This document shows, one piece after another, positions 4,041 to 42,600 of a stretch of DNA of 64,000 bases (position 1 is its first letter; each line of letters opens with the position of its first letter). Below the pieces are notes generated by a model. It ran no database searches and was not told the DNA's origin. It was given only the letters and a program-made list of their open reading frames with translations. The stretch lies in the NCBI GenBank assembly GCA_963774955.1, contig CAVZGV010000003.1:256771-320770 (forward strand), written 5' to 3'. The stretch comes from Candidatus Falkowbacteria bacterium. Lineage in GTDB: Bacteria > Patescibacteriota > Patescibacteriia > CAIXNZ01. The translations under genes and the position numbers were made by a program.

Positions 4041-4607
4041 TTATCTGGCAAAGGGGTCGATGGTATCCATCTTTTTGGTGCGGAAGGTTTCTTCGGTTGC
4101 TTCCGTGGTGATGGTTTTGCTCAGTTCATCCAGGTTGATTCTGGGGAAGCCGAAAATACCGGCGACCAGGCTGTTGGGGAAAGTCAGCAGGCTTTCCCTG
4201 TACACTCGTATTCTGTCGATTTTGTCCCGCTGTTTGGCCTCGAAACTGTTGTAGCCGGCTTCGATCACGGCTTGCAACTTGAGAAAGACAGCTGAGTCGA
4301 TCGTAGGATTTTGTTCCGTGATCAGGCTGATGGCAGCTTTGGAGCCACCGTCGCCGTAACGGCCGGTCATGGAGGCGTCAATAGCCTTGATAACCATGTC
4401 ACCGTATTTTTCCACGGACAGGCCCTGGGACTTGATGTTGTTGTAGATGCTGGCATGCACGTTTTTCATGTCTTCATGGCTAGCCAGGATGCCCTGTTCC
4501 TGTCTGATCAGGTTATTGTATGAGCCGAGTACGTAGATACCGCAGCCACCGACAACGGCGACCAGACCACAGACGATGACCAATACGAACACTCCAACCG
4601 TTTTCAT
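4041..4607 (-). CDS. lemA: LemA family membrane protein
   Basis: N-terminal TM helix (MKTVGVFVLVIVCGLVAVVGG) followed by a LemA-like domain (NNLIRQEQGILASHEDMKNVHASIYNN...YNSFEAKQRDKIDRIRV). AGGAGG lies 6 nt upstream of the ATG at 4607. The track ORF is extended upstream through the neighbouring gene. Confidence 0.85.
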   Translation of the reverse strand: MKTVGVFVLVIVCGLVAVVGGCGIYVLGSYNNLIRQEQGILASHEDMKNVHASIYNNIKSQGLSVEKYGDMVIKAIDASMTGRYGDGGSKAAISLITEQNPTIDSAVFLKLQAVIEAGYNSFEAKQRDKIDRIRVYRESLLTFPNSLVAGIFGFPRINLDELSKTITTEATEETFRTKKMDTIDPFAR

Positions 4608-4627
4608 TTTCTTCCTCCTAATAGGGG

Positions 4628-5944: not shown

Positions 5945-6073
5945 TTTTTAAGTATTCCTCCTTATTTGAATTTAATTTTAAAGGACATTATATAATATCA
6001 AATTATGGTCATTATGTCAATGGGGGCGATGGTGTTAAAGTACCCTTGATTTTTTTATGGTTTTATGATATTC

Positions 6074-16576: not shown

Positions 16577-18451
16577 ATGAATTCGAGTAATATTCGCAAT
16601 TTCTGTATTATCGCGCATATTGATCACGGTAAGTCCACTTTGGCTGACCGTTTTTTGGAATTGACCGGGACTGTGGAAAAAAGGAATATGAAAGCTCAGA
16701 TTTTGGATGCTATGGATTTGGAACGGGAAAGGGGAATTACCATCAAACTTAACGCCTGTACAGATGAAATATCAGGAGTATGTTTTGAATTTAATTGATA
16801 CTCCCGGCCATGTTGATTTTACTTATGAAGTTTCGCGTTCTTTAGCTTGTGTTGAAGGGGCGATTCTTTTGGTTGACGCGACACAGGGTATTCAGGCTCA
16901 GACAATTGCCAATTTGTATTTGGCTCTGGAACAGAATTTAACCATTATTCCGGTTATTAATAAAATTGATTTGCCCAATGCCGAGGTAGACTAAAACTAA
17001 AATGGAAATTATTAATTTGCTGGGTTGTAAGGAAGATGAGATTTTAATGTGTTCAGCCAAAACAGGGGAGGGTGTCAAGGAAATTTTGGATGAGGTTATT
17101 AAAAAAGTTCCCGCACCATTGACTAACACAGTAAGAGCCTTTTCGCGCTTTAATTTTTGATTCTTTTTATGATGAATATAAAGGCGTGATTGTTTATGTT
17201 CGGGTTTTTGACGGAGAATTAAAAAAGGGTCAACCGATATACTTTTATTGCCAGTCAGACTATCAACCGAAACGTTGGAAGTGGGCAGTATGAGACATCA
17301 AATTAGTTCCCGATGAAATTTATGCAGCCGGTCAGATCGGTTATATTGTGACTGGTTTGAAAGAAGTGGAAAAATCTCGTGTCGGCGATACTATTACTTT
17401 AAAAGGTGCTAGAAGTTGAACCTTTGCCTGGTTATAAAGAAGTTCGGCCAATGGTTTTTGCCGGTATTTTTTGTAAAGAAGGCAGTGAATTTAATCAGTT
17501 TACGTGAAGCAGTCAATAAATTAAAATTAAATGATGCGGCTTTGTTTTTTGAACCGGAACATTCTTCAGCCTTGGGTTTTGGTTTTCGCTGCGGTTTTTT
17601 GGGCTTGCTGCATTTGGAAATTTTTCAGGAACGATTAAAGCGGGAATTTAATTTGGATTTAATTGTGACAGTGCCTAGTGTTGGCTTATAAAGTAACTTT
17701 AAAATCAGCAGGTTTGAAAAAGGAACTGGAAGCCAAATTAAAAAGCCGGGACTTTTTGGCAGAAAATTTGGAAGCTAATCAGATTGTTATTAAAAGTCCG
17801 ATTGATTTACCAGATCCAAATTATATTGAAAAAATTGAAGAACCAATGATTAAAGTTGATATTGTTTCGCCCAAGGATTTTATGGGCGGTATTATGCAGT
17901 TAGTGGCGGAAAAACGAGGTGAATATATTAATACTGAATATCTGTATGTCAGTAGCTGAAATTGATCAGCGGGTGATTTTGCATTATAAAATGCCCTTGG
18001 CTTCAATTTTGACTGATTTTTACGATAAATTAAAAAGTCTTAGTTCTGGTTATGCTTCTTTGAATTATGAATTTATGCGGTTATCAACAGGCTGAAGTTG
18101 AACGTTTGGATATTTTTGTGGCAGAAGAAATAGTAGAATCATTGGCAATTATTGTTTATAAAGATGATGCTTATAAGGTCGGCAAAAAAATAGTTGAATA
18201 CTCTGAAAGAAAGTCTGCCCAAACAATGGTTTGTGGTTAAATTGCAAGCAGCAGTTGGCGGTAAGATTATGGCCAGTGAACGTTTGGGCGCTTATCGTAA
18301 AGATGTGATTGCCAAGCTTTATGGTGGTGATGTTACCCGTAAAAATAAACTTTTGGATAAACAGAAAAAAGGCAAAAAGAAAATGGCCGAACTCGGCGCC
18401 GGGTCAGTGGATATTCCGACCGAGACATTTTTGAAAATATTGAAGCGATAG
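16577..18451 (+). pseudogene. lepA: lepA (elongation factor 4) pseudogene, fragmented by at least 6 frameshifts or stops
   Basis: Successive ORF fragments in different frames match LepA in order: G1 [12 protein letters not shown]...ERERGITIK (16577-16798), G3/G4 [17 protein letters not shown]...[12 protein letters not shown]...NKIDLP (16707-16994), CSAKTGEGV (frame 1), [33 protein letters not shown] (17416-17691), a domain IV fragment (17678-17959) and the C-terminal [24 protein letters not shown] (18194-18451). A 1-nt shift is visible near 16755 and another near 16992. Confidence 0.8.
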
Positions 18452-20526: not shown

Positions 20527-20562
20527 AAAAACACGAAAATAGCTTTCGTGTTTTTTCGTGAT
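20527..20562. repeat. CACGAAAA-motif palindrome (AAAACACGAAAATAGCTTTCGTGTTTT + TTTTCGTGAT)
   Basis: Perfect inverted repeat ACACGAAA/TTTCGTGT followed by a third copy of TTTCGTG. It is related to the TIRs at 35707 and 36157 and to the motif at 44242. Confidence 0.5.
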
Positions 20563-20596
20563 AAAGATTTAGTGGTTCAGTTATCCTTGCAATTAT

Positions 20597-20634
20597 AAAA
20601 CCCCGAGGAACAAGTCCGCGGGGCTTTGGTTTTT
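20597..20634. terminator. Bidirectional terminator between recJ and the convergent 833-aa gene
   Basis: Hairpin CCCCGAGG...CCGCGGGG flanked by AAAA and TTTGGTTTTT. Confidence 0.5.
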
Positions 20635-23134
20635 AATCCTCGTCAGGATCGCTGCCGACAAAGAAGGTGTGAAATTCTCGATCAACAATTTTTGCTCCTG
20701 ATTTGAGGTCACCGCCCATTGAATCCGAATATTCGAATTCGTTGAGTGACGGCGGTAATTCCAGACGCAGGGTTCTGGTTTTGATCTTGGACTTGGGTAG
20801 GACCTCTTTGAGCAGGTCTACCAGTTCCTGGTCCTTGACTGCAATCATTACCGGTAAATCATTATCCCTGCTGATTTTGCCGGCTTTGGCTATCAGCCAT
20901 TGCAGCATGCCGATGCCGATCTCCCTGGACCAGGCTTTGCAGTACGGCCTTTCCATCAAAAGCAGGGGAATGGTTTCCTTATCCGTGTGGCCGTATTCAA
21001 ACGGCAAGAGGCGCATAATGCTGCGGCCAATGATGTCAAAATGATTATTTCTGATCCACAGTACTCGTTTGTTGGCATCAACCACATAAGCCGCCAGGCA
21101 TTGATTATGACCAGTCCATTCGTGCCAGCGTTGACAGCTTTGAACAGGTAAAGTACCGACTTTCATCAGCTCATAAGGCTTATCACTGTCTTCAAAGGTC
21201 AGATGCGAGATAGCTGAAGTGTCAGTGCTATTGAGCAGCTCAATAATTTGCTGCGTCAATTCTTTGGCTTCGGACGTGCCCAGCTTCTGAGCAATTTGGG
21301 ATAAATGACGCTGGATGTCTTTGAGCATTGTAACCGTGATCGCATTGATTTTCAACAACTCGCAGATGATTTTGATCAGGCCATATTCTTTTTTGATCTG
21401 ACCGAGTCTGGCGCCAATTTGCTTACGCTCTTCGGGAGACAAATCAGTGCCTCTGAGTTTCTTAACAAGATCTTCGTTTTCAGCGTCAATATCTGAGGTG
21501 ACTGGCTTGCCCGTGTGTTTTTCCCAGAGTACAGCTAGTTGTCCGGCTAAACGTTGGATAGCGTTGAGGCGCTGCTGGAGCGCGTCTGTCAGTCCGACAA
21601 TCATGGCATGCCGATGATCATCTTTCCACGCTTTCGGATTTGACAAGAAGTTGATTTGTTTGCCACTTGTTTTGTTACTGTAGCGCCAATGGTCAAAATG
21701 CTTGGCCATGGCTTGTTTGAGTGTTTCTGAGGCCAGCTCGGCCCCGCGCTCATAGCCATTGGCTTTGCATAATGAGGCATAGGTAAAGCACATTTCCAGC
21801 AGACCGTTTCTAGCCACAAGCTGCCAGATGTTATCCTGGGTCAGCAGGTTTAATTCTTCATCACTAAGATTAAGAATCTTTTTGTACATGGCTTTGGTTC
21901 CGTTTTCAACTTGGTAAACCAGATCTTCCATGGAAGCGCAATCAGCCGGATAGTTTAGATCCGATCTGGAACGAAGGCTAAGCATCTCAATGGCTTGTAA
22001 GCCCCGCAATAATTCCTCGCAGGAATTGGCCAGACTGATGAAATGACACAGTGATTTTTCAGCCTGCCCGGCATAGCGGAAGATATTCAGACAGCGCCAC
22101 AGCAATCTCTTGTCATCGCGTGACTTCTGGAAATGCTTGTCCGTGGTCAGCTCTTCCAGCTTGGCAATGATCTCTCGGGCCTGAGGCATTTCAAACTGAT
22201 ATTTGGTCAGAATGAGAAAGCCCAGACTCAGGGGCAGATTTTTCAGCGCTTGCAGCAGTTCCAGCCGTTCTGGCTGCTCGAAACATTGTTGCCAATCGAG
22301 ACTGCTTAGTGGATAGTCTATCAGGCTGCCGGCTTTGTAGTGGATGTTTTGCAGGATGACGGTAATGGCAAAACAGAATTTATCAGCTGTGTTTAGACAG
22401 GCTTGGATATCTTCAAGTTGCATTTTGAGCTGATCAAAATCCTTGGCTGAATTCTTGGTTTCTTTGGCCAGGTACGCAAGCAGGGAAGTGACCTCAGTCA
22501 GGGATAATCTTTGCAGAAAAAACGGGACCAGCTCGATGATGGCCGCAATATCATTGCCGGCGCCATCTTGATGCAGGGTTAAGAGGCTCCAGAATGCGTT
22601 CTGATAGTCTCTTTCGTTTAGACAATCATCCGCTGTATGCTCGGATAATTTATTTTGGTACGATTGCCAAATTGAGGAAGGCAGAGCATTGGCATGAGCC
22701 ATGGCCAAACTTAATTTGATGACCAAAAGCTGCCAGCTTCTCCAGTTTAGATATGTATCTTCCAGACATGAATTTTGCGGGCAGTGATCTGTCAGGTTAA
22801 GTAATGCCTGGGCCAATTCTGGAAGGCGGACTTGGCTGCGCATTTTGGGGCTTAGATTACCGCGCGAAGAAAATTTCGGTTTGACTGCTTTGGCCGTACT
22901 TTCTTTGGCCAGAAACTGTTTCCAGTCCTCAAAGGCAGAAAAACCTTTATTCAGCAGTTTCTGGTATCTTTCCAGCTGAAAGATTTCATAAAGAGCTTCT
23001 TTGTTGCCGTCATTCAGCAACCCCAGCTGTATTCCCAAATTTTGAGCCAGCACAAGACGTTGTTCTAAGCGCTGTTCTAACCTTGCCTCTTGCCGTAATT
23101 CCGGCCGGCAACACATCATAAGACCTAGTGCCAT
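20633..23134 (-). CDS. Large (833 aa) predominantly alpha-helical hypothetical protein, first gene of the high-GC island
   Basis: Long ORF with high-GC codon usage (CTG, GCC, CAG). It contains no Walker, HxH, GGDEF or other motifs I can recognise and has an acidic C-terminus (VGSDPDED). Confidence 0.6.
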   Translation of the reverse strand: MALGLMMCCRPELRQEARLEQRLEQRLVLAQNLGIQLGLLNDGNKEALYEIFQLERYQKLLNKGFSAFEDWKQFLAKESTAKAVKPKFSSRGNLSPKMRSQVRLPELAQALLNLTDHCPQNSCLEDTYLNWRSWQLLVIKLSLAMAHANALPSSIWQSYQNKLSEHTADDCLNERDYQNAFWSLLTLHQDGAGNDIAAIIELVPFFLQRLSLTEVTSLLAYLAKETKNSAKDFDQLKMQLEDIQACLNTADKFCFAITVILQNIHYKAGSLIDYPLSSLDWQQCFEQPERLELLQALKNLPLSLGFLILTKYQFEMPQAREIIAKLEELTTDKHFQKSRDDKRLLWRCLNIFRYAGQAEKSLCHFISLANSCEELLRGLQAIEMLSLRSRSDLNYPADCASMEDLVYQVENGTKAMYKKILNLSDEELNLLTQDNIWQLVARNGLLEMCFTYASLCKANGYERGAELASETLKQAMAKHFDHWRYSNKTSGKQINFLSNPKAWKDDHRHAMIVGLTDALQQRLNAIQRLAGQLAVLWEKHTGKPVTSDIDAENEDLVKKLRGTDLSPEERKQIGARLGQIKKEYGLIKIICELLKINAITVTMLKDIQRHLSQIAQKLGTSEAKELTQQIIELLNSTDTSAISHLTFEDSDKPYELMKVGTLPVQSCQRWHEWTGHNQCLAAYVVDANKRVLWIRNNHFDIIGRSIMRLLPFEYGHTDKETIPLLLMERPYCKAWSREIGIGMLQWLIAKAGKISRDNDLPVMIAVKDQELVDLLKEVLPKSKIKTRTLRLELPPSLNEFEYSDSMGGDLKSGAKIVDREFHTFFVGSDPDED

Positions 23135-23224
23135 ATCGTCCTCCTATAAAGGGTTTTTAATTTTCAAGGATCCAAGTCCCCTGAATAGAGAAATTTAGCA
23201 TGTAAATTTAAAAAAGTCAATTGT

Positions 23225-23298
23225 AAGCTACAAATATACAAATAAATACAAATGACTACAAATTTGTAATAATTTGTAGCTGATTTGTATATTTGTAA
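23225..23298. promoter_or_regulatory. Palindromic array of 4 direct + 4 inverted TACAAAT heptamers in the promoter region of the 833-aa gene
   Basis: TACAAAT occurs at 23229, 23237, 23247 and 23257. ATTTGTA occurs at 23263, 23272, 23284 and 23292. The array is symmetric about ~23262 and lies 90-165 nt upstream of the start at 23134. Confidence 0.5.
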
Positions 23299-23304
23299 CA
23301 GAAT

Positions 23305-23345
23305 TAAAAAAGCCCCGCGTGGATTTGATCCATGGCGGGGTCTTT
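23305..23345. terminator. Bidirectional rho-independent terminator
   Basis: AAAAAAG-CCCCGCGTGGAT-TTG-ATCCATGGCGGGG-TCTTTTGTT. Confidence 0.55.
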
Positions 23346-23353
23346 TGTTATTT

Positions 23354-23695
23354 CTAGGCTGCCTTGCTATCTTTGTTTTTTTCCATAGCCGGGAAAGGGA
23401 CAATCTCTGCAAATTCGATTGGCAGTAGGTTGTTGTCAATCCAGCTCTCGGAAAAGCCCTGGCTCTGCAACCAGCGCCGGCGATGGCCTTCATCTTGAAA
23501 GAGGAGCAGGTCATTGCCGTGGTTCAGATAGCGAGGAGCCATGCCCAGACGGAGCAGACCGTTGCAGAATGCTGATTTTATCCGCTGCGGATCAATTAAG
23601 CTCCGATGCGGATAACAGCTGATCTGAGTTTGACTGTCGACTACCTCCAGTTTTTCAACCTCGGAGGAGCAACGCGCAATTTCCCAAAATTCCAT
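23354..23695 (-). CDS. Small hypothetical protein (113 aa), paralog-like to the upstream gene
   Basis: AGGAGG lies 6 nt upstream of the ATG at 23695 (MEFWEIARC...). It shares a [FW]LQxxGF motif with the upstream small protein. The track ORF is extended upstream. Confidence 0.5.
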   Translation of the reverse strand: MEFWEIARCSSEVEKLEVVDSQTQISCYPHRSLIDPQRIKSAFCNGLLRLGMAPRYLNHGNDLLLFQDEGHRRRWLQSQGFSESWIDNNLLPIEFAEIVPFPAMEKNKDSKAA

Positions 23696-23708
23696 AATTG
23701 TCCTCCTT

Positions 23709-24017
23709 TTAGGCGGCTTGGGCCAGGCATTTGCCGGCGCACTGCACGCAGTATGGCTGGCAGGGAAGCTGGCCAGGCAGTTTGTCAAAGCCGTTTTGGA
23801 GAAAAAATTTTTCAATTTCCTCCATGCTTTTGCCGATGATGACTGGTTGGTTGTCCACTACTTCCAAGAAGATTCCGTCTCCGCAGATGCTTCTGGGAGT
23901 AATGTCATAGCGGACGTCTTTGGGTTTGTACAGCGGGTTGGTTGTCTGGTTCAAGATGGTAAACATCAGCCAGACTCCCAGATTACTGACGCGCAAAATC
24001 CTCTGGCTAATCGGCAT
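23709..24017 (-). CDS. Small hypothetical protein (102 aa) with a C-terminal Cys cluster
   Basis: AGGAG lies upstream of the ATG at 24017 (MPISQRIL...). The C-terminus reads CQPYCVQCAGKC. The stop is 13 nt before the next gene's start, so this is a two-gene operon. Confidence 0.5.
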   Translation of the reverse strand: MPISQRILRVSNLGVWLMFTILNQTTNPLYKPKDVRYDITPRSICGDGIFLEVVDNQPVIIGKSMEEIEKFFLQNGFDKLPGQLPCQPYCVQCAGKCLAQAA

Positions 24018-24454
24018 GATTTTTCTCCTTGGTTCGGTAGGCTGTTTGGTTGACAAAGGCCAATATTTATGGTTAAATCTATTGATTCTGGATTTATTAT
24101 CATATCATATTTATTCAATTTTGTCAAGGTTTAGTGCATTTCTTTGGATTAAATTGGCTAATTTTAGTCAATTATATAGTTAGTTGCTAATTTGGGGCAC
24201 AAGCATAGGTCATGAAAGCATTATTAGACTGTAAAATTTGACAACTTTGTTTTATTTGTTTAAGATTGGAAATTGTTTTATCATAGAAGTAGAGGAGGAT
24301 AGGTTACGACGGAATTGCATCTTGATTGGACATTTAAAATAATGAAGGCCCTCCTACACTAAAGCTTCGGAGGGCAAAGGAGGTGAATTAGTCGCGGCAA
24401 AGGAAAGTGTTGGATGTTAACTCGAACCAGAAAATTCACGGCAAGGAGGCCAAA

Positions 24455-27274
24455 ATGAGCAACAAAAAAGGAGGTGCCAATAAGCGCCTCAAATTGCTCA
24501 AAACAAGGGCCAGACCAGCTTTGAACTTCCCAGAGCTGGTTGGGATAGCCAGACATAGCTCAACTCCAAATGAGGCTGCCAAAAAAGCCACTGAGGAATT
24601 GTGTTATGAGCTGGCTTATCTCGCTGCCGGCGATCGGGTTGAAGCCTTAAAACAAGTCAAAGTTCTGCAAAGCGCTGTTCATCAGCTGACTGTAATCAGA
24701 AGAGATTATGGTCGTGCAGAATTTGGCAAGTTTGTGGCTGCCAATTCCGTGTCGACGGCAGACTCTACCAGTCCACGCTTACTGAAAAATGTAAGCACGG
24801 ACCAGAGCAAACAAGGAGAAAAGGATATGAACAGAAAAAAAGGAACAGCGGTCAAGGTCGAGAAGCAGGAAACTAACGTCCAGCCGAGCATTCCGCTCAA
24901 GCACATTACGTATAATGTTGCTTTGAACGGCGCACATGCCCGGGTGCGTTCCATCCAGGAATTCACCAATGACGCTGATCATCCGGTGGAAGCGATTTAC
25001 GTTTTTCCACTGCCTGATGAAGCCAGTGTCACGGCATGTTCGATGAAGATCGGTCGCAAGACCATCAAGGCTGAACTCAAGGAACGAGAACTGGCGCGCA
25101 GGGAATATGACCAGGCGATCAGCTCCGGTCATCACGGCGCTTTGATGGAACAGGAACGGCCAAACATTTTCACCATGAACGTGGGCGGCATCGAACCGAA
25201 AGAAACCATCAAAGTGGAAATCACCTATGTGCAGCGTATTCATTGGCAGGACGGCGGCGGTCGCTTTCGCGTGCCTCTGGTCGTAGCGCCCAGGTTTATC
25301 CCCGGTGTTCCGACCGGCAAGCAGGCTGGTGGCTGGGCTCCGGATACTGACGAAGTGCCGGATGCTTCGCGCATCACTCCGAATGTGGCGCCTGAAGGCG
25401 TGCTTTATAACGCCAGCATCAATGTCTCGTTCGCACCAGGTTTCCGCTGCCAAATGACTTCACCGTCACACGACATGATCGTCAAGGACCAGACTGTGGC
25501 CAAAGACGCCAAGATCGAACTGAAAACCGGCGACATCCGGACTGACAGGGACTTCACTCTGGTTTACAAATCCTTGTCCAAACGGCCTGAAGTCGCGGTT
25601 TTCCAGAATGCGGGCAAGGACGAAAGTTTTTGCCTGGTCAACATTCTGCCTCCGGGTGATGTGGCGACTGTTCCCAGCGATGTGGTTTTCCTGCTCGACA
25701 TTTCCGGCAGCATGGACGGTCCCAAACTCGAGGGCCTGAAAGTCCTGGCCAAAAAAGTCCTGACCAAAATCAGGGACCAGAAGCTGGGACATCGGGTTTC
25801 CATCATTGCTTTTGAAAGCAGGCCGCATCTGATCGTGCCGCTGAGTGACATCTCTGATGTGCATTTGCAGGGTATTGATCGGCTTAGCGACACGGGTGGA
25901 ACCGAACTCGGACCGGCGCTGACAGCGGCTCATCAGCAATTGGGTGACAGTGGTCGTCCACGTATTATTTTCCTGATCAGTGACGGCCAGACCGAAAGCC
26001 TGAATTACCAGGGACACGGAGTTCGGATCATTGCGGCTGGCATCGACAGCGCAGTCAATGATTCCACGCTCAAACAGCTGGCGCAGAAGACCAACGGTAC
26101 CTATGTGAATTACTTCCCGGGCGAAGACTTTGACCGCGCAGCCAACAGCCTGATCGGCATGCTTTCCGGACCGGTTCTGCGTGAAGTCAAAGTGGACAGT
26201 CAGGCTGAAGTGGCCGGGCTGACCGATGTCTTTACCGGACGGCCGGCTTCCATTGCTCTGCGTTTTGACCAGGGTCTGCCTGCTGAAATAAAAATCAGCG
26301 GTCAGGATCCTTCGGGTCAGGAGCAGACTTGGAATTTCAAACCGGCCAGTGGCAAAGATTGCGACTTCGCTGCTCAGATCTGGGCGCGCGAGGCTATCCG
26401 TGAAACGCCGGACAAAACCAAACAGGTGCAAATCAGTTTGAAACACGGCGTCATCTGCAGCGGAACTTCTTTCGTGGCCATTTCCGAAAAGGAAGTGCCG
26501 GGTGAGAAACCGGTGCGGGTGGAGATCCCGGTGAACCTGCCCATGGGCTGGGTCTATGACAAGATCTTTGGCGGAGCCAGTTCTCACGTTAAGGGTCTGG
26601 GATTGAACAGTTCCAGAATCGGCGCTCCGATGGCGCTTCATGCCTTTGCACCTCCGTCTCGCAGCAGCTTTGGGCTTGTTGATGATGACTTTGGCAGCGG
26701 TCATGTTGACTCTTTCGAGTGCTGCTTCGAGGATTCGCCAGTCTACGGAGACGCAGAATGCATCGAGGAAGTTTGCGAGTGCTGCGGATGCGAAGACGAG
26801 GACGATGTGTCCGGTGGCGGACAGGAAATTTTGGACGACTTTGGATATGAGCGTTTCAACTTGGAATCACTTGATCTGGTTGACCGGCTGATCGCCATCA
26901 TGATCAACATCCAGCTGCCTGGTTATCCTTCTCAGAACGCCGAAGCCACTTTCATCGAGCTTGAACGCAACTTGACTGTCAAGGAAATCAAGTCCTGGAG
27001 CGATGAAAAACGGGCCATGGCACTGTACTTCGTGATGCGCCTGAGATCTTGTGGCCTCAAATTGGAAGACCCGAAGGTGATGGATGCTCTGGCTGTGCCG
27101 TCCAAAAATTCCAAAGAAGCGGACTGCTGGCAGTATCTCACGGCCAAGGAAATCGGACTCGGCACTCAGGGTGTTCCTGCTGTTCCAAATTCCATGGACG
27201 GCGCGGACTACATCATGTGGAAAATCAATCCGATCAATCCGCAGCCGACCGGTGACTGGTCGCTTGTTCCTTAA
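24455..27274 (+). CDS. VIT (vault/inter-alpha-trypsin) + von Willebrand factor A domain protein with an acidic Cys-cluster C-terminal region
   Basis: The VIT-like region runs ITYNVALNGAHARVRSIQEFTND...VFPLPDEASVTACSMKIGRKTIKAELKER...TYVQRIHWQDGGGRFRVPL. The vWA has a complete MIDAS (VVFLLDISGSMDG...SDTGGTELGPAL...FLISDGQ). The tail reads CCFEDSPVYGDAECIEEVCECCGCEDEDD. AAGGAGG lies upstream of the ATG at 24455. Confidence 0.8.
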   Translation: MSNKKGGANKRLKLLKTRARPALNFPELVGIARHSSTPNEAAKKATEELCYELAYLAAGDRVEALKQVKVLQSAVHQLTVIRRDYGRAEFGKFVAANSVSTADSTSPRLLKNVSTDQSKQGEKDMNRKKGTAVKVEKQETNVQPSIPLKHITYNVALNGAHARVRSIQEFTNDADHPVEAIYVFPLPDEASVTACSMKIGRKTIKAELKERELARREYDQAISSGHHGALMEQERPNIFTMNVGGIEPKETIKVEITYVQRIHWQDGGGRFRVPLVVAPRFIPGVPTGKQAGGWAPDTDEVPDASRITPNVAPEGVLYNASINVSFAPGFRCQMTSPSHDMIVKDQTVAKDAKIELKTGDIRTDRDFTLVYKSLSKRPEVAVFQNAGKDESFCLVNILPPGDVATVPSDVVFLLDISGSMDGPKLEGLKVLAKKVLTKIRDQKLGHRVSIIAFESRPHLIVPLSDISDVHLQGIDRLSDTGGTELGPALTAAHQQLGDSGRPRIIFLISDGQTESLNYQGHGVRIIAAGIDSAVNDSTLKQLAQKTNGTYVNYFPGEDFDRAANSLIGMLSGPVLREVKVDSQAEVAGLTDVFTGRPASIALRFDQGLPAEIKISGQDPSGQEQTWNFKPASGKDCDFAAQIWAREAIRETPDKTKQVQISLKHGVICSGTSFVAISEKEVPGEKPVRVEIPVNLPMGWVYDKIFGGASSHVKGLGLNSSRIGAPMALHAFAPPSRSSFGLVDDDFGSGHVDSFECCFEDSPVYGDAECIEEVCECCGCEDEDDVSGGGQEILDDFGYERFNLESLDLVDRLIAIMINIQLPGYPSQNAEATFIELERNLTVKEIKSWSDEKRAMALYFVMRLRSCGLKLEDPKVMDALAVPSKNSKEADCWQYLTAKEIGLGTQGVPAVPNSMDGADYIMWKINPINPQPTGDWSLVP

Positions 27275-27310
27275 ACATCAACTCTAACCGTTAGCTGGCA
27301 ACAGTTAACG

Positions 27311-27346
27311 AGGGGCTTGTGGTGAAAACCGCAGGCCCCTTTTTTA
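27311..27346 (+). terminator. Rho-independent terminator after the VIT-vWA gene
   Basis: AGGGGC...GCCCC hairpin followed by TTTTTTATTT. Confidence 0.5.
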
Positions 27347-27584
27347 TTTGGTCAATAGTGTTGTGGTTAAGATGTCGGTTTTGTAATTGGTGTTTCGGGT
27401 AATGTTTTTTGTTACGTGAAATGAAATTTGTCTATGTTATCAACAGTTTTATAGTTTATGTTTTTAAAATATTATGCTATAATTTAAATAATAAATAATA
27501 TTTACTTTAGTTGAGATTGTCGCTTTGTCAGGGGGGTGAGGAAATATTCCAAGGGGATATTTTTTTAGTTATAAGGAGGGAAAG

Positions 27585-28067
27585 ATGGTTAGTAGTGAAA
27601 AGGATCGTCCTGACAGTAATTTGCCGGTTGAAAAACGGCAAGCTCCCAGAAAGGTTGTTCCAGCAAGCGAACGGTTTTCCGTTGTTTTGGGACAACCAGA
27701 TGGTACTTTTAAACCGCCTAGAGAAGTCAGCAGGAAAATACCGACTGAAGCTCTGAATGCAAGATTACTTGCGGCCCAAAATGCCAATTGCACCATAGTG
27801 GATATTTCAGAAATTGGTCTGCGCATTTGCCACAGCGTCAACTTGAATGAGGGCGAAACCGTCGGAATTTTTTTTCAGATTTTTTTAGGACTACCCAACG
27901 AAGAGAAAGGCATTACGTTGATCTGTCAGGTGATTTGGCATAAACCATGGAAAGCCGCTAAGGGCTTGGGCCATTTGACCGGCTTAAACATCATTCACAA
28001 TTCAGACGACGTAAGCTACAAGCAATTTGTAGCCAGCCTACCAACTTTAGCACAAGCCCGCGCCTAG
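27585..28067 (+). CDS. Putative PilZ-domain (c-di-GMP-binding) protein
   Basis: An RxxxR motif (RQAPR) is followed by DxSxxG (DISEIG) ~50 aa later. AGGAGGG SD. A TGCTATAAT promoter sits at 27475-27483. The spacing between the motifs is longer than canonical. Confidence 0.4.
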   Translation: MVSSEKDRPDSNLPVEKRQAPRKVVPASERFSVVLGQPDGTFKPPREVSRKIPTEALNARLLAAQNANCTIVDISEIGLRICHSVNLNEGETVGIFFQIFLGLPNEEKGITLICQVIWHKPWKAAKGLGHLTGLNIIHNSDDVSYKQFVASLPTLAQARA

Positions 28068-28082
28068 CGCGGGCTTTTTTTA
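28056..28082 (+). terminator. Rho-independent terminator; the stop codon lies in its loop
   Basis: GCCCGCGC-CTAG-GCGCGGGC followed by TTTTTTT. Confidence 0.6.
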
Positions 28083-28136
28083 TTGTTAAAAAAATGTTAT
28101 TATTAAATTAATTTTTAGGAATTAGAGATTATATAT

Positions 28137-29745: not shown

Positions 29746-30714
29746 ATGGCGATCGATTTTTTAGGTAAAGAAGGGGAAAAACTGGCCAAAAAGGAGGCAA
29801 TTGCCATAAAGATGCATAACCCTGAAAAACAGGTTGTGGCAACTTCTAAGCAAAAAGAAAAACCTAAAGTTAAACCGAAAAAAGAAACGCCTAAGATTCA
29901 GAGTCGGGAGAAGTTCGAGCAGGTCAATTTAATCTTTTCTTTCAAGCAATATATTTTAAAGCGCAGGTTAACTTTTATTCTAATTTTTGTTATAATTATT
30001 GCAGTCCTAGCTGTTTTCGTCTATTGGTTGCTAACCAGACCAAAACCGATTTCGCCACCACCGCCGCCTATTCCCGTTTGCGGTAATGAGAAGATTGAAG
30101 CGGGAGAACAATGCGATTCGAGCGGCTGTATTACTGATCAGGTCTGTGTAGATTGTCAGTGTCAAAATATCATTATATCGCCACCACCGCCGCCGGCACC
30201 TGTTTGTGGTAATGGACAAATTGAAACAGGGGAACAATGTGACCAGATTGGCTGCTCAACAAATCAGACTTGTGTAAATTGTCAGTGCCAAGGAGTTATT
30301 GCCCCACCACCTCCGCCACCACCGCCTCCGCCGGCACCTGTTTGCGGTAATGGTCAGGTTGAAACAGGTGAGCAATGCGATTTGACTGGTTGTACTCCTG
30401 AGCAAACTTGCCTTGATTGCCAATGCCAAATAGTAATTTTGCCGGATACTGAATTAGCGCCTTTACGCGGTGCTCTTATCAAATTTAGTTCAGATAATAA
30501 TATTTATTTGATTGATTATAACGGTGAATTGCGATTAGTCGATCCCTTAACAGCAAGCTTTAAAAACAATCAAACCATCAGGGATATAAAAATAGATGAA
30601 ATTTATTTAATCGCTGATCAATATAAAACGGTACGAATGGGCCAGCCAGTTTTAGGTAAAGTTGACTGGGATCCCCGAATATTAAGTTCTGCAGAACTAA
30701 TTCCTTTTCAATAA
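29746..30714 (+). CDS. Membrane-anchored protein with three Myxococcus-type Cys-rich repeats and poly-Pro linkers (PilN position)
   Basis: A cytoplasmic N-terminus and one TM precede 3x [P-rich]-VCGNGxIExGEQCDxxGCxxxQxCxxCQCQ and a ~90-aa C-terminal domain. The gene starts 10 nt after the pilM stop. Confidence 0.55.
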   Translation: MAIDFLGKEGEKLAKKEAIAIKMHNPEKQVVATSKQKEKPKVKPKKETPKIQSREKFEQVNLIFSFKQYILKRRLTFILIFVIIIAVLAVFVYWLLTRPKPISPPPPPIPVCGNEKIEAGEQCDSSGCITDQVCVDCQCQNIIISPPPPPAPVCGNGQIETGEQCDQIGCSTNQTCVNCQCQGVIAPPPPPPPPPPAPVCGNGQVETGEQCDLTGCTPEQTCLDCQCQIVILPDTELAPLRGALIKFSSDNNIYLIDYNGELRLVDPLTASFKNNQTIRDIKIDEIYLIADQYKTVRMGQPVLGKVDWDPRILSSAELIPFQ

Positions 30715-31723: not shown

Positions 31724-32191
31724 ATGATTCGAGATAAAAAACAAGGAGGATTTTCATTAGTAGAATTATTAATTGTGGTTGCCATTATTATACTTTTGGC
31801 GACTATATCGGTCATTGCTTTAAATGACCAGCGGGCCAAGGCAAGAGATGCGAAAAGAACTAGTGATGTCAGACAAATCCGGACTGCGTTGGAGTTTTAT
31901 CATAGTGACGAAGATCAATATCCTGTATTTGATAATCCTATAGTTTTGGGTCAAAAGGGTGGCGAAAAATTATGTGCCAAGTCAGCTGGAGCAATCGTTT
32001 CACTTGAAACTCCCTGCAGTCAGGATACAACGTATATGGCAATTATTCCCAAAGATCCTTTGCCGGACAGACAATATATATATAAGGGTAATATTAAGGA
32101 TTATGAAATAATTTTTACCACGGAAAAGCCAAGTGGTTTGGGTGAAGCTGGTCAGTATATTGCCACGGCTGAAGGTATTAATATAAAGTAA
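31724..32191 (+). CDS. Type IV pilin (prepilin N-terminal cleavage/methylation domain)
   Basis: KKQGG|FSLVELLIVVAIIILLA, a canonical prepilin leader with E+5. Confidence 0.75.
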   Translation: MIRDKKQGGFSLVELLIVVAIIILLATISVIALNDQRAKARDAKRTSDVRQIRTALEFYHSDEDQYPVFDNPIVLGQKGGEKLCAKSAGAIVSLETPCSQDTTYMAIIPKDPLPDRQYIYKGNIKDYEIIFTTEKPSGLGEAGQYIATAEGINIK

Positions 32192-36633: not shown

Positions 36634-39600
36634 ATGATAAATCCAAGGAAAATCAGACAAAAAGTGGTTTTCTTGAAGTTTTTTAGTTTTAAAACTAAGC
36701 TTATTTTAAGTTTGGTTTTTGTTTTAATTATCGCTATCATCTTCTCAGTTAATTACTTTGTCCCGGTCAGCGCGGACAATTTCTTAGTGACTGAAAATTT
36801 TACCACTGATACTTTGAAAGATGCGAATGCCACTACTGGTATTTGGGACACTACTTTGAATCAAGCTCGGTTGTTAGGTAAAGATTGGATTAATATGGAG
36901 GAAACTAAAGATACTTACGGACCGTTTACAACTTTAACCGATTCTGTGTTGAATTATAATATTACTTATGATACAAGTGCAAATCCTTATATTGTTTGGG
37001 TGTCAAATGGAGTGGGCGGGGTTGGCGATGTTTATTTTACCAAATGGACGCCCGGGACAGGCTGGACAGGTATGGACTGTATCTCAGCGTATGACAATAT
37101 TTCCAGCTCCACAGCACTTTCTTCGCAGCCTAAAATAAAATTAGACGGCGCCGACGATCCGATTATAATTTGGTCTGAAAGTTCGACTTCGACTGATATC
37201 TATTTAGCTCATTGGGATAGCGGTAATAACCGCTGGGCCAATATGGCGGGTAATGCGAGTGCTCCCGAAAACATCAGCCAAGATTCAGTTAATAACACTT
37301 TTTTTACCCTGGAAGTAGATGGTACTGGTAAACCGGCCATTGTTTTTACTAGAAATGTGGGCCCAACTATAAATGATTTGTATTTTACGACTTGGAATGG
37401 CACAACATGGACCGGTGCGGACGGGGTTGATACTGATTTTAATCCTTTAATCTATGAAAACGATAAGATATCTGATTCCTCTACCAGTTATGGCAATGAA
37501 AATATTAAGTTGAGATTTAACAGTTTGAACGAACCCTATATTGCTTGGTGGCAAATAATTGTTAGTCCGACCAGAGTCTTATTTACAAAATGGACACCCG
37601 CAGTTGGTTGGACGCATATGGACGGAACTACATTAGGTTTTGAACCAATCAGCGATCTTACCAAGGTAGGTTCCCAGCCTAATTTGGAGATGGGTACTGA
37701 TGATTTTCCTTATATTACTTATGTGGAAGCTCCCGTTGGCGGTGGCCCTAGTTCAAATTTAGAAATATTATTTGCCCATTGGACCGGTTCAGGCTGGTAC
37801 GGTATGGATGGAATAGTTTTACGTGATAATGTTTCTATAAACACCAGTTCATCGCAGGTACCTCAGATGAAACTTGATGCCGGGAATAACCCCATTGTTA
37901 TTTGGCGCGATACTACTCCACCCGGAGGTGGCGCAGTTACCCAATTAGAAGTCTACTTACGCAAATGGACAGGTGTTGCCTGGACGGCCATGGATGGTAT
38001 TGCTACCTATGATAATATCTCAAATACTCCTGCCGCCAGGTCATATACTTATAATTTAGCTGTAGATAGTACGGGTGAGCCAAATCTTTTCTGGGGAGAC
38101 GGTCCTTCATCTTTGTTAAATTATTATTTCACCCGCTGGGTGGTTGGTAGTGGTTGGGAAAAAATTGACGGTACTTTAGGCCAAGATGCGGTATTGTCCG
38201 GTGCCGCGATTAATAGTTTTTCAGTTGGACCCGATGATACCCCCTATGTTTTATTTGCAGATCCACCGTCAACTGGACAGCCACAGCTGATCAAAGGTAA
38301 AGATATTTATGCGTCTACTTCTGATATTGTTTCTTTGAATATGAATACAGGTTCTGATTTCGTAGTATCGGCCAAGATTTCCGCGGCGGAAACTCTTAAT
38401 GGCCAAACAGTAAATTATTTTTTATCCAATGACGGTGGCGCTACTTGGGAGGTTGTCAGTAATAATGTGGCGCATGATTTTATTACCTCTCATGGTTTTG
38501 ATTTGCGCTGGAAAGCGGAACTGGTGACAATTTTGAATTCGGTTACACCTGTAGTTGATGATCTGGACATTACTTATAGAACAAAAAAAATATTCTGCAG
38601 TCTTTCTCCGACTTCTGTACTTCAGGGACAGCCGGTGACTATTGCAGCGACTACCAGTTTTGTGCCTGGTGCAGTTTGGGCTACGGTGGAAAAAAACGGT
38701 GAGGTTTTAAGCACGGTAACAATGAATAATGTCGGTGGCAATAACTTTAGCGTTAATTACAGTACCGCGGGAACCAATTTAGGTAGAAATGACGTGGCAG
38801 TATTTGCCTCCAATGCCACAGATACTTATGTCTGTAATCCTTCTACCGGTGTTGACTGGCAGCGGATGTCAACCAATGATATCCCTTGGGACCCACGGAC
38901 TTTTCACGGCTCTGTCAGTTTGGGAAATTATATTTATCTCTTTGGAGGTTTATCGGACAGATTTTTAAGTGATGTTTGGCGTTCTCAAGATGGTTATAAT
39001 TGGCAGCAGATGCCTGATGCCCCCTGGGCCGCAAGAGGGATGTTTGATCCTATTGTTTTTAACGACAAAATTTGGGTCATGGGCGGTCGAAGTTATGTTT
39101 ACTTAAGCTCTCCAGTGAACTACGGTGATGTCTGGTATAGCTCAGACGGCCAATCATGGACACAATCAACTAATGATCTGCCGTCATCACCTGCAGTTAC
39201 CCGCAGGACTTATGCCTCGACAGTTTTTAATAATAAATTATGGATTTCCGGCGGCAATTCAGGCGGGCCTACCAATGATGTCTGGTATAATGATGATCCC
39301 ATAACTAATGCCTGGGTTCAGGCGACACCAGCTGCCAGCTGGTCAGTTAGGACTCTTCATCAAATGGTTACTTTTGATAATAAAATGTGGGTAATGGGTG
39401 GCAATGGTCCTTTAAACGATATCTGGCATTCAACAGACGGTGTTAATTGGTATGATACTTTTTGCCAGGGAGGAGTTGATGACGGCCAAGCCTGTGTTAT
39501 TGGCGGGGATTGCGATTCAAGTTCTTGTTTGTCAGAAACAGCAGCCTGGCCTGCCAGAGTAGATTTTCAAGCCTTGGTTTTTGATGAAGATGGTAGCGGG

Positions 39601-42600
39601 CCTCAGCCGGAAAAAATGTGGGTCATGGGCGGTGCTGATTTCCTAGCTGAAGGCAGAACAAATTATAACGATGTTTGGTCCTCCGTAGACGGATCAACCT
39701 GGATTTTAAGAAGCAATCCGCTTTGGACGGCATCTTATCCGTTAAATTCCGCACCCGCAACCTGGGAAATGTGGTCAGCCAGAAATGGACTTCAGGTAGT
39801 TAAGCATAATAACGGTGCAGGGGATAAGTTATATTTATTAGGAGGTTATGAATATCGAGCTGCATCTCAAAATGATGTTTGGATTTCCAGTGACGGTTCA
39901 AATTGGGATATATTAAATACTTCATATAATGCTCCGTTTTCGCCAAGATTTAATACAAAAATAATTGATTTTAAACCTGCTTTAGGCACTGATCAACTTT
40001 GGTTATTAGGGGGTAAGACCAGGAGTGGGGGATTAGCTAATGATATTTGGAGTACTGCTGACGGACGGACTTGGTCATTAAAGGTTGATAATGGTATAAC
40101 GCCCTGGTCTGCACGTTTTGGCCACAACGTGTTTACTTTTGATAATAAATTATGGATTTTAGGCGGTTGCGCCAATGATAAAGAAAGAGCAGATCCAAAT
40201 ACTCAGCCTCAACCCGGAGCATATTGCTTGGGCAAATGTGACGGTGGCACTAATAATGGTGCTTATTGTAATGTAGCAACTGATTGTAATTCCTTTAAAT
40301 GCAAATGGCAGGGATTAAATGATATTTGGAATTCAAATGACGGAGAAAATTGGACTTGTGTTGTTGGTAGCGGCTGTCCTAATCCTGTGGCCTGGGCTGG
40401 ACGCTATGGCCAGACAGTGGCAACTTATAATGGCAAAATATATTTAATAGGTGGCATTACCCGCGGAGCCTGTTTAGGTGCTCCTGTGTTAGGTTCGGCT
40501 TGTACTGGCAATGCTCAATGCGTTGCCGGTGGCGGAACTCAATGTGCGGGCGTGTGTTTGTCAGGTACAAATGCTGGAAATCCTTGTCTTAATGATGCTG
40601 CTTGTGGGGGAAATAAATGTTCTAATTATGCTAACGTTTTTAATCGGGATGTTTTATCTTCCTCAAACGGCTATACTTGGACACAAGAAATTGCTAGTGC
40701 TCCCTGGCCTCTAAGATATAATTCCAGCGCTATTAGTTTTAATGACGGTTATGCAGAGAAATTATATTTTTTTGGTGGTTATTATGTAGGTCCTATATAT
40801 TACAACGATGTTTGGTGGACAACTGATGGCGCTACCTGGCGCAATACTTTTTGCCAAGGGGGGATCTATGAAGGCAAGGCTTGTATTATCGCTGGTGATT
40901 GCGGTACTGGAATTTGTGCTGCTAAGACAGCTGAATGGCCGGGTAGAATGACATTTGCCCTCCAAAAATATAATGATAAATTATGGGTTTATTCTGGTCA
41001 GACTTTGGGAGATATTCCTGGGCCGGGAACCCAGTTATTACCAGCTCTTTGGACAAATGATGTTTGGTGGTCAAATAACGGTTCTTTTTGGACTCAAGCA
41101 AATAATACGGCTGAGTTTCCTGGCCGTGATTATTTTACTTCTGCAGTTTTTGATAATCGTTTATTTTTGACTGGTGGTGATTCAAACTGGGGCACTATGA
41201 ATGATGTCTGGGCCTCAAGTTATGATTATAGCAGTATGAATTTTACCGTGAGTTCGGCACCCGGTTCAACCGGTTCGAGTTGTACAGATACAGTGCCGGA
41301 AGATCCCGGAGATGTTGTGGCTCCGTCTTTGCCCTGTGTAGCTACTAGCTCAGCAGCCATTGACTGGGATTTTGTGGATAATGCGGCCTGTGAAATGGGA
41401 TACAGACTTTATGACGCTGCTACGGATGTCAGAATAAAATATGTAGAACAGCCGAATTTGAGTTTAATTTCGGAAACCGGTTTGGATGTAAATAATCAAT
41501 ATAGCCGCTATGTCACAGCATATAATGCGGCCGGCGAATCAGCCGCAACCACAGCTGCCAGCTGTTTTACCCTGGCCAAAGTGCCGAATAAGCCGATCAT
41601 TTTAAGCGCCAACGAAAATGAAATAATATTGCAAATAGATCCTAATGACGGTAATCCCGTGGGTACAGAATATGAAATCAAGGAACTATTGACTAACCAA
41701 TTTGTTCAGGCCGACGGAACCTTTGGAGCCGGAGAAACCTGGCAAACTTATGATAATTGGGGAGGCGACAGCGGATTAGCAGTTATCGGTGAATTGCCAG
41801 CAGCAGAACAGCCGCTATATGAGGAACCATATCAACAGCCTGATTTAAATAATAATGAAAATATTAATGCCGCCTTTCATATTAGTTTAACCAGCGGCCA
41901 GAATTATAATTTTACCGTGCAGGCGAAAAACGGCGACGGGATACCAACGGGATTTTCGGCAACTACTTCTGCTACTACAGTTACGACAGGGCCTGGAACA
42001 GTTTTAGCACCGAATGTAGGCGCAGAGAAAGGCGTATTCAAAAAAATAACCTGGCATTCTTCCTTTGGTCTTTTTAATGTTGCTCTGGCCAGCAATAAAT
42101 TGTTAATTAATGCGAGCGGACCAATTAGTCACGTGTTGGCAGTTTTGTCCTGGTTGTTGAATCTAACGTTGTTGATTTTATTAGTTATGTTAGGTTTGAG
42201 TCTGTACCAGACCTTAAAATATCTTAAACATGAAATTAAGTACCCTGATACGTTCCGATTAATCTGGTCAATTTTAAGCAGGGAAGCGCAGCATAGTTAT
42301 AAAAGTGATGCTTTAAGGACAGCAGACGGTGTTTATTATATAAGTGCTTTTGGGCAACATAAAAAACTGCAGAATTTAAGTCAACAGACTTTTAAAGGTA
42401 CTTTAGCGGCTATGGGTATAAAATTGATAATATTGGGAACATTATTTACGGGGCTGATCACTGTAAATCACAGTAGCTTAGCGCTTCTGCAGCCATATAA
42501 TTTGGGCGGGGAGACTTTAAAAGTTGGTGATGTTTTGACTTATGATTTGGAGGTTTCTAATAAAGGTACGGCTCCGGCTCAAAATATCGTCATCAAAGAT

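Follow-up and report, generated by a model that had tools for sequence, protein, structure and literature searches.

Dictyostelium Vwa1 and human VWA5A are described as carrying a disordered loop and then, at the C-terminus, a bundle of helices that is predicted to pack against vWA (PMC10539598), and the VIT plus vWA core of the VWA5A/Vwa1/PARP4 class was reported to be deeply knotted (bioRxiv 10.1101/2023.06.16.545156). We analyzed a 64,000-nt stretch of DNA from a Candidatus Falkowbacteria bacterium (the window), in which a prokaryotic VIT-vWA protein of 939 amino acids (aa) is encoded within a G+C-rich region at 20.6-27.3 kb, together with a gene for an 833-aa protein and two small genes (A and B), and is followed by a pilZ gene. 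An initial annotation of the sequence had taken these five genes for an island inserted between recJ and rnhA. On balance, the region is probably an old, recombination-prone resident locus of a Parcubacteria lineage (candidate phyla radiation, CPR) and not a discrete recent insertion. It is also not a new kind of system, the VIT-vWA, GNAT-fold and PilZ domains being already known. Apparently new, within a limited literature search, are a full-length VIT-vWA family that runs through CPR bacteria and DPANN archaea with extra terminal domains, its persistent G+C excess, its allelic vWA types and Ala-Ala-tailed neighbours, and a giant GNAT-fold family without a Pfam entry.

The VIT-vWA family of CPR and DPANN

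The VIT, vWA and PilZ domains named in the initial annotation were all recovered with Pfam, with E values of 9.5e-34 for VIT (residues 164-274 of a 955-aa open reading frame, ORF) and 1.2e-16 for VWA. An AlphaFold2 (AF2) model of the 939-aa protein (pLDDT, the predicted local distance difference test score, 76.6) and the sequence give the following layout:

Residues 12-97: N-terminal helical domain (AF2)
Residues 100-142: disordered linker (AF2)
Residues ~148-405: VIT domain
Residues ~409-590: vWA domain, with a MIDAS (metal ion-dependent adhesion site) made of D415-x-S417-x-S419, T483 and D510
Up to residue ~700: beta/helical part
Residues 709-797: acidic, Cys-rich disordered linker (AF2)
Residues 808-937: C-terminal helical domain, which ends in WSLVP (AF2)

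The MIDAS is complete, and none of D415, S417, S419, T483 and D510 varies in an alignment of 45 sequences. The N-terminus is basic and helical with no hydrophobic stretch, and neither a signal peptide nor a pilin-like start was found. Compared with the published description, the model has the layout of the intracellular proteins VWA5A/BCSC-1 and Vwa1 (no signal peptide, VIT, MIDAS-bearing vWA, beta part, disordered loop and C-terminal helices; PMC10539598). The top structural match is ITIH1 (Foldseek E = 3.9e-25), with ~650 aligned columns over the VIT domain, the vWA domain with its MIDAS and a hybrid-like domain, at 14% sequence identity. ITIH1 lacks the N- and C-terminal helical domains and, unlike the intracellular VIT-vWA protein, is a secreted animal protein that carries a covalent link to glycosaminoglycan through its C-terminus. 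By sequence, the solved structure that matches best is the vault protein PARP4 (E = 2.6e-45), which has a similar VIT-vWA core. The core is also shared with TIGR03788, the NCBIfam family of marine proteobacterial sortase targets (295.5 bits over profile positions 4-594 of 629). Membership in that family was rejected because the score is far under the cut-off of 551.65 bits and no signal peptide, sortase signal or LPXTG was seen in the sequence.

The CPR/DPANN family differs by an added, conserved domain of four helices at the N-terminus, by a linker rich in Cys, Asp and Glu and by a C-terminus of the WSLVP type that is invariant. It is further marked by an excess of G+C at third codon positions (GC3), by allelic vWA types and by Ala-Ala-tailed neighbour genes. 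The available portions of PMC10539598 and bioRxiv 10.1101/2023.06.16.545156 do not mention these traits for eukaryotic VIT-vWA proteins. Attention is thereby drawn to a conserved intracellular protein of CPR and DPANN that resembles human VWA5A in its layout and vault PARP4 in its core.

More than 2,000 homologues were found, and the full-length ones are 45-77% identical and come from many CPR groups and from DPANN archaea. Related loci are numbered here from L001. The archaeal origin of the L106 homologue is certified by an adjoining archaeal EF-1alpha gene; on this Aenigmarchaeota contig (6001-10322) VIT-vWA stands immediately upstream of EF-1alpha. Neighbours elsewhere are S2, EF-Ts and GAPDH (L108), GyrB, DnaX, and PBP2 and GreA (GreA in L042 and L043), the last two assigned from sequence only. 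The gene behaves as a conserved, single-copy, lineage-wide gene. Viral contigs gave only distant, generic VIT-vWA proteins (≤29% identity).

In L109 (1-14352), a 783-aa homologue that is 48% identical to the window protein lies within a one-directional run of ~28 small ORFs, among them a helix-turn-helix repressor-like gene and a Clp_N-like gene matching phrog_35667; this VIT-vWA gene shows no G+C excess over its neighbours, and the family may here be borne by a mobile element or a virus. In one clade, an SNase-like secreted protein of 161 aa (Pfam SNase E = 1.2e-22) is encoded two genes upstream of VIT-vWA (L036, 6933-7418; homologues in L035, L037 and L049), and a PilB-type ATPase gene lies on the other side of VIT-vWA in L035 and L036.

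Age, composition and organization of the locus

The layout recJ, cassette, VIT-vWA, pilZ, rnhA, pilM and then the remaining genes of a type IV pilus cluster, where the cassette is the recJ-proximal set of small genes and the 833-aa gene, is kept in three other genomes. These are L001 (NCBI GCA_026395755.1; identical to L010, with the locus repeated on the shorter Logan contig L002), L005 (Logan SRR13958301) and L006 (JGI 3300037810; repeated on Logan contig L007). Among the syntenic genomes, which are only distantly related, RecJ is 84-87% identical, the nonsynonymous divergence (dN) of MurJ is 0.05-0.08, and the flanking genes have a synonymous divergence (dS) of 1.1-1.8 and a dN/dS of 0.04-0.09. 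Given this divergence of the flanks, the locus is older than the split of the lineages that share it, and it is not an insertion between recJ and rnhA peculiar to the present genome. VIT-vWA occupies the same site in L001, L005 and L006, and only the recJ-proximal cassette varies. The nearest relatives of the region's proteins are found on Candidatus Parcubacteria contigs and on those of further Patescibacteria (CPR); the best homologues all come from CPR or DPANN, and none from GC-rich phyla.

The composition of the region departs sharply from its surroundings, as had been claimed. G+C at 20.6-27.3 kb is 46-55%, as against ~39%. Windows of 1 kb give 0.46-0.47 for 21-24 kb and 0.54-0.55 for 25-27 kb; the bulk of the 64 kb falls at ~0.33-0.45. 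In 300-nt windows it climbs at ~20.5-20.65 kb, drops at ~27.25-27.4 kb, and is 0.34-0.39 in both intergenic regions (23.05-23.35 kb and 23.95-24.4 kb). All three codon positions are raised in the anomalous genes, and the third the most: GC3 is 0.53 in the 833-aa gene, 0.58 and 0.66 in the two small genes and 0.59 in VIT-vWA, compared with 0.37 in recJ, 0.39 in rnhA and 0.36 in pilM. The pilZ gene, which had been counted as part of the anomaly, has a host-like GC3 of 0.43. The five ORFs were found as described, as were antisense ORFs of 412 and 224 aa, both within the VIT-vWA gene. As an anomaly the region is the window's largest and not its sole one, with another G+C bump at 4001-5000 (0.507). 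That patch (4000-6000) holds a 438-aa ORF (4628-5944, minus strand; GC3 0.52) with a hydrophobic N-terminal segment and no Pfam match.

The abrupt change of composition at both borders is what a GC-rich segment misjoined to an AT-rich contig would also produce, a concern raised in the initial annotation. The same gene order over both borders was found in independent assemblies from different samples and pipelines (GCA_026395755.1, Logan SRR20698647, Logan SRR13958301, JGI 3300037810 and Logan SRR18595301). A chimera can therefore be excluded with near certainty.

Base composition and codon usage that depart from the host are a common mark of genomic islands, and the departure in the window is clear. 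To place it, further loci were collected from metagenomes and a gene-position index, and the GC3 of each VIT-vWA gene was compared with that of its own neighbours. VIT-vWA exceeded its neighbours in 19 of 19 non-redundant loci from CPR and DPANN (sign test p = 4e-6), by +0.14 on average (range +0.02 to +0.32), and the regression slope on host GC3 is 0.66. GC3 also runs in parallel along the gene in distant lineages, an archaeon included: the first 100 codons and the disordered linker have low values, the VIT, vWA and C-terminal domains high ones. Because VIT-vWA shows the same departure in every genome examined, composition is not diagnostic of an island here, and the G+C excess loses its value as a sign of foreign origin. 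In all four syntenic genomes VIT-vWA has a GC3 of 0.59-0.62 against ~0.40 in the flanks, so its composition has not decayed toward the host value.

Ordinary selection on codon usage, with VIT-vWA and the cassette genes very highly expressed and using host-optimal C-ending codons, would be one cause of such a bias. We initially favoured it, as the window's shift is mainly one of NNC over NNT (TTC 0.55 vs 0.14, ATC 0.71 vs 0.20, GAC 0.65 vs 0.23) and of CTG replacing TTA, with little change in AAA (0.62 vs 0.74) or GAA (0.72 vs 0.77). The strong promoter-like sites and Shine-Dalgarno (SD) sequences and a VIT-vWA dS below that of the flanks fit as well. Translational selection was dropped when genes that are themselves highly expressed proved host-like beside a GC-rich VIT-vWA: in L108 the GC3 of VIT-vWA is 0.53, against 0.26 for S2, 0.30 for EF-Ts and 0.25 for GAPDH, and in L106 it is 0.62 against 0.26 for EF-1alpha. 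In both loci VIT-vWA also uses more NNG codons for Lys, Glu and Gln (share 0.57-0.76 vs ~0.3), so that the shift there is one of G+C in general. A candidate pilin gene of the window (31724-32191, assigned from its N-terminus) has a GC3 of only 0.29. We consider this explanation improbable.

The excess, which we count as the locus's most unusual trait, would be upheld by ongoing exchange of alleles with a gene pool richer in G+C, by biased gene conversion or by silent-site selection, and would not be the fading relic of a single transfer. Silent-site constraint might conceivably stem from folding of the knotted VIT-vWA core, which is pure speculation. A sharp G+C anomaly with no marks of mobility thus need not signal recent transfer. 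The excess persists over two domains of life and under strong AT pressure and is absent from highly expressed neighbours, and the family offers a clean test case for what sustains silent-site G+C, be it biased gene conversion, allele exchange or selection.

The five genes are not one block but fall into no fewer than four transcription units, and every unit has a promoter-like site and a terminator of its own, as follows:

20527-20557, plus strand: terminator of recJ, read in the sequence
20599-20625, minus strand: terminator-like hairpin after the 833-aa gene, read in the sequence and found by scan
20633-23134, minus strand: gene of the 833-aa protein (ORF listing)
23192-23220, minus strand: promoter-like site of the 833-aa gene, TTGACT-17-TAAATT with TG; a promoter-like sequence is similarly placed in L001
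23229-23297, no strand: nested palindrome of TACAAAT/ATTTGTA heptamers with 15-nt perfect arms, directly upstream of the 833-aa promoter; candidate operator
23310-23345, minus strand: terminator of the small-gene operon; hairpin sequence conserved in L001
23354-23695, minus strand: small gene B, 113 aa, with an AGGAGG SD
23709-24017, minus strand: small gene A, 102 aa, with an AAGGAG SD
24099-24127, minus strand: strong promoter-like site of the small-gene operon, TTGACA-17-TATGAT with TG, 11/12 matches; conserved in L001, L005 and L006
24238-24266, plus strand: promoter-like site of VIT-vWA, TTGACA-17-TAAGAT; conserved in the four syntenic genomes
24272-24454, plus strand: 5' leader of VIT-vWA; conserved in the four syntenic genomes (alignment)
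24455-27274, plus strand: VIT-vWA gene, 939 aa (Pfam VIT and VWA)
27310-27341, plus strand: strong terminator after VIT-vWA, 14-bp stem
27585-28067, plus strand: gene of the PilZ-domain protein, 160 aa (Pfam PilZ), with promoter-like sites of its own
28054-28076: terminator of pilZ, found by scan

Terminators thus stand not only at the two borders, as had been noted, but after recJ, the 833-aa gene, the small-gene operon, VIT-vWA and pilZ, and the one at 27310-27341 makes VIT-vWA monocistronic. The strong SDs ascribed to the region can be read in front of both small genes. The VIT-vWA leader contains an invariant-looking block (24311-24338) and a hairpin (24348-24375) whose pairing is kept through compensatory changes (CCTCC/GGAGG vs CGCC/GGCG), and a second small hairpin brackets the SD. 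RNAalifold predicts 28 pairs in the leader, 9 of them with changes on both sides. The leader has no Rfam match, and Rfam searches of the intergenic regions gave sub-threshold chance matches only. In the palindrome, four TACAAAT heptamers face four ATTTGTA heptamers and abut the -35 element of the 833-aa gene; at this position L001 has a different repeated motif, CGTTA/TAACG.

These data bear directly on the idea of a recent genomic island, namely a single 7.5-kb block that came from a GC-richer donor and brought in one new five-gene system. The shift of G+C and codon usage at all three codon positions favours it, as does the rarity of the cassette genes (three close homologues of the 833-aa protein among 5.8 billion, and small proteins that are singletons). 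So does the GC3 of the 833-aa family, which in other CPR departs from the host in both directions, as in recently transferred genes. On the other side stand the presence of the locus in three other assemblies with flank dS above 1, the family-wide excess of VIT-vWA (19/19), best homologues in CPR and DPANN and not in GC-rich phyla, the separate transcription units and the host-like pilZ. Scans of the window found no tRNA, no Rfam family at gathering score, no flanking direct repeats and no integrase or transposase domain (Pfam, NCBIfam), in agreement with the unmarked borders first reported. The five genes also do not co-occur elsewhere: among the loci scanned, the 833-aa family adjoins VIT-vWA in this lineage alone, and the neighbours of VIT-vWA differ by clade. 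We regard a recent island as very unlikely. Horizontal exchange as such retains support from the varying gene content of the slot and from a vWA domain swapped between lineages, and it is the insertion as one block that falls. Under the refuting condition named in the initial annotation, island genes that prove to be ubiquitous core genes of relatives, the island claim falls for VIT-vWA and is not refuted for the cassette genes.

Allelic vWA domains and the variable slot

Recombination at the locus is evident in the vWA domain. Residues ~411-590 occur as two allelic types, one in the window and L005 and the other in L001 and L006. In 60-aa windows the vWA identity is 82-93% between the window and L005 and 77-82% between L001 and L006; pairs of different type have only 40-48% over window residues 411-530 and 63-68% at 531-590, with a dN of 0.37-0.45. 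The VIT part is 75-97% identical in every pair, and the flanking genes group the window with L001. The vWA types therefore contradict the phylogeny of the flanks and point to recombination. In line with such a mosaic, dS between the window and L001 ranges from 0.24 to 2.3 along the locus: 1.5 in murJ, 1.3 in recJ, 2.3 in the 833-aa gene, 1.6 in small gene A, then 0.24 in the N-domain, 0.54 in the VIT part, 1.59 in the vWA part and 0.75 in the C-domain of VIT-vWA, 0.73 in pilZ and 0.72 in pilM. Overall, VIT-vWA has a dS of 0.73-1.04, under the flanks, and a dN/dS of 0.22-0.27, over the flanks. The vWA domain, which would bind the ligand, would be under diversifying or balancing selection, and its polymorphism and exchange suggest a changing ligand.

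The slot between recJ and VIT-vWA varies in gene content. Each syntenic genome has its own combination of small-gene families, some of them shared, and each unit has its own promoter and terminator:

Window: small gene A, small gene B and the 833-aa gene
L001: three small genes (115, 103 and 102 aa) and an 837-aa gene
L005: two small genes, one of 115 aa and one related to the 102-aa gene, and a 372-aa gene that is unrelated
L006: three small genes (102, 81 and 84 aa)

The 372-aa gene of L005, which sits in the place of the 833-aa gene, was considered as its relative and rejected (hhalign probability 1%). The products of small genes A (102 aa) and B (113 aa) have exact matches in a public collection, which agree with the chosen starts, and are singletons there. 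Small protein A has a Cys-rich tail, LPCxPxCVQCAGKCLAQAA (four Cys), and is 45% identical to the product of the 103-aa gene of L001. Small protein B ends in ...DSKAA and has no homologue among the compared loci; no database search was made for it. The two had been described as paralogues, which the comparison does not bear out (BLASTP E = 0.079 over 10 residues); they have in common only the ...AA C-terminus and a short LEVVD motif. Neither matches a family in Pfam, NCBIfam, PADLOC or PHROGs, in keeping with the earlier statement that they resemble nothing named. The small proteins of the related loci have no Pfam match either, and sequence comparison relates the small proteins to no part of the VIT-vWA protein.

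The slot's ~100-aa proteins belong to several unrelated families, the majority of which have an Ala-Ala terminus. At least six mutually dissimilar small families beside VIT-vWA, in at least four genomic contexts, end in Ala-Ala (QAA, KAA, NAA, VAA, DAA, LAA, KAA, QAA). Among mechanically called ORFs (50-170 aa), an AA ending occurs in 10 of the 240 that lie no more than 1.2 kb from VIT-vWA, compared with 8 of 732 farther away (Fisher p = 0.0046); near genes of the 833-aa family the count is 0 of 144. The VIT-vWA protein would be an intracellular Mg2+/MIDAS-dependent protein-binding hub resembling VWA5A and PARP4. The Ala-Ala-tailed mini-proteins would be its candidate partners, their C-terminal carboxylate serving as MIDAS ligand. 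MIDAS ligands are known to include free carboxylates at a C-terminus, as in complement C3b and factor B. The mini-proteins might alternatively be labile regulators with a ClpXP-type degron. Proteins that carry the ssrA tag, a ClpXP degron, end in Ala-Ala, and the small proteins likewise end in ...AA-COOH, with varying residues before it (Q, K, N, V, D, L).

We offer as a tentative proposal, with a small chance of being right, that the CPR/DPANN VIT-vWA protein and its interchangeable ~100-aa Ala-Ala proteins may form an undescribed recognition module. In it the carboxylate would dock on the MIDAS, recombination would keep the polymorphism, and exchange or silent-site selection would hold the G+C high. 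If true, it would be a lifestyle-specific system of ultra-small episymbionts for interaction with host or virus or for proteostasis. The Ala-Ala-tailed mini-proteins provide a testable idea for the ligand of the VIT-vWA protein.

The third component of the window's slot, the 833-aa protein, had been called all-helical. It has a disordered N-terminus with a conserved MPGxGM...LEQRLEQ motif and a helical body (residues ~42-640), but residues ~640-830 form an alpha/beta GNAT fold (AF2 model, pLDDT 87.8; structural comparison). R737-E-I-G-I-G742 stands at the expected coenzyme A-binding place in the window protein and its close relatives and is degenerate in distant members. In comparison with GNAT N-terminal acetyltransferases (Naa40/NatD, Naa50/60/80, RimI/RimJ), the protein adds the ~600-residue helical region and the disordered motif. 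Three close homologues were found among 5.8 billion proteins, and a 40-sequence profile returned the same three; a profile search of 1.84 billion representatives gave 405 relatives. The protein has no match in Pfam, NCBIfam, PADLOC or PHROGs, the 405-member family matched no Pfam family among those tested, GNAT models included, and viral contigs held no relative. A large Pfam-less family with a predicted GNAT fold, common to CPR and DPANN, is thereby defined. Two assignments were tried and rejected: a GNAT toxin of the AtaT/TacT type (a ~175-aa toxin with a ribbon-helix-helix antitoxin), as the protein has 833 aa, is encoded monocistronically, has no ribbon-helix-helix match in its neighbours and belongs to a family placed among translation genes in DPANN; and a resemblance of its N-terminus to sigma-54 region I, as there is no Pfam Sigma54 match and the family is also archaeal.

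At the locus, the 833-aa gene is present in the window and L001 and absent in L005 and L006. Members of the family occur in many CPR groups and, within DPANN, in Woesearchaeota, Pacearchaeota and Nanoarchaeia. A genome scan with a 12-sequence alignment recovered 23 further loci of the family, all without an adjoining VIT-vWA gene. In DPANN its members lie between aEF-2 and EF-1alpha (L012, 6159-15566; L014, 16-5704) or near ribosomal-protein genes and have host-like composition; in CPR their GC3 departs from the host both ways. Both the 833-aa and the VIT-vWA families thus adjoin EF-1alpha in archaea. The GNAT-fold protein would be a separate accessory gene that chances to occupy the variable slot in this sublineage.

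The initial annotation had also suggested a conflict or surface-recognition module, which here would be an anti-phage or inter-microbe system with a vWA sensor or adaptor, variable small partners and a GNAT effector. The two divergent vWA alleles exchanged between lineages and the fast-evolving, turning-over small genes nearby are compatible with it, and vWA proteins occur in conflict systems described by the Aravind group (cited via PMC13622651). With the vWA-MoxR systems of that source the locus has in common a vWA protein beside variable, fast-evolving partner genes. It differs in having no MoxR AAA+ ATPase, no sensor or effector domain and a monocistronic, lineage-conserved VIT-vWA gene. 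None of the five proteins matched a known defence system in PADLOC, and no MoxR ATPase, nuclease, protease or other effector was found nearby with Pfam and NCBIfam. VIT-vWA is conserved, single-copy and lineage-wide and stands among housekeeping genes in L108, L106, L042 and L043, and the GNAT family, which in DPANN is placed between EF-2 and EF-1alpha, is unlinked to VIT-vWA elsewhere. Such a module is conceivable, but we doubt it.

Several points weigh against the reading of an old, exchanging locus with a ligand-binding VIT-vWA protein. The syntenic comparison comprises four genomes only, and for the other loci a plain longest-ORF rule served to call neighbour genes. The effects reported for biased gene conversion are usually much below +0.14 to +0.32, and the lower dS of VIT-vWA could reflect silent-site constraint and not recent exchange. 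No correlation is seen between vWA type and the set of small-gene families. Some cassettes are G+C-rich, which inflates Ala (GCN) codons and in part confounds the Ala-Ala enrichment, and for this reason the enrichment is only suggestive. Finally, VIT-vWA has no small Ala-Ala-tailed neighbour in L042, L043, L052, L106 and L108.

Pilus context and other features of the window

The PilZ protein (Pfam PilZ E = 2.1e-7) carries canonical RxxxR (RQAPR) and DxSxxG (DISEIG) cyclic di-GMP motifs, and its position is conserved in L001, L005 and L006. It belongs with the flanking pilus cluster and not with the compositional anomaly. In view of this setting, the VIT-vWA protein could be imagined as a cytoplasmic regulator or scaffold of type IV pilus assembly that acts with PilZ, PilM and PilB in host attachment. 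In this clade VIT-vWA is followed by pilZ, rnhA, pilM and the pilus cluster, and in a second clade it stands beside a PilB-type ATPase gene; L107 has a pilin-like gene ~5 kb away, L109 has an MshEN-domain gene, and vWA domains are found in pilus tip adhesins (PDB matches SpaC, PitA and Mfa5). Against this, VIT-vWA in other clades lies beside putative PBP2 and GreA genes, GyrB, DnaX, GAPDH or EF-1alpha with no pilus genes near. The protein has no signal peptide or pilin-like N-terminus, and a strong terminator separates its gene from pilZ as a distinct unit. CPR genomes are small and rich in pilus genes, traits that make chance proximity likely. A pilus function for VIT-vWA therefore seems unlikely to us.

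Three further observations concern the window outside the locus. The lepA gene (~16580-18450, plus strand) is broken by five or more changes of frame when set against L001, whose LepA (620 aa) is intact; the neighbouring genes are unbroken. The gene is either a pseudogene or affected by local sequence errors. Three giant paralogous ORFs stand in tandem on the plus strand (36634-44091, 44429-52087 and 52236-59099; 2485, 2552 and 2287 aa), with near-identical N-termini and a hydrophobic segment each, and G+C bumps occur there at 49-51 kb and 56-58 kb. After pilM, a 322-aa ORF (29746-30714, plus strand) with no Pfam match contains Cys-rich modules, three in tandem, with a poly-Pro stretch ahead of each (PPPPP..PVCGNG.E.GEQCD..GC...Q.C..CQCQ), and its L001 homologue is 66% identical.

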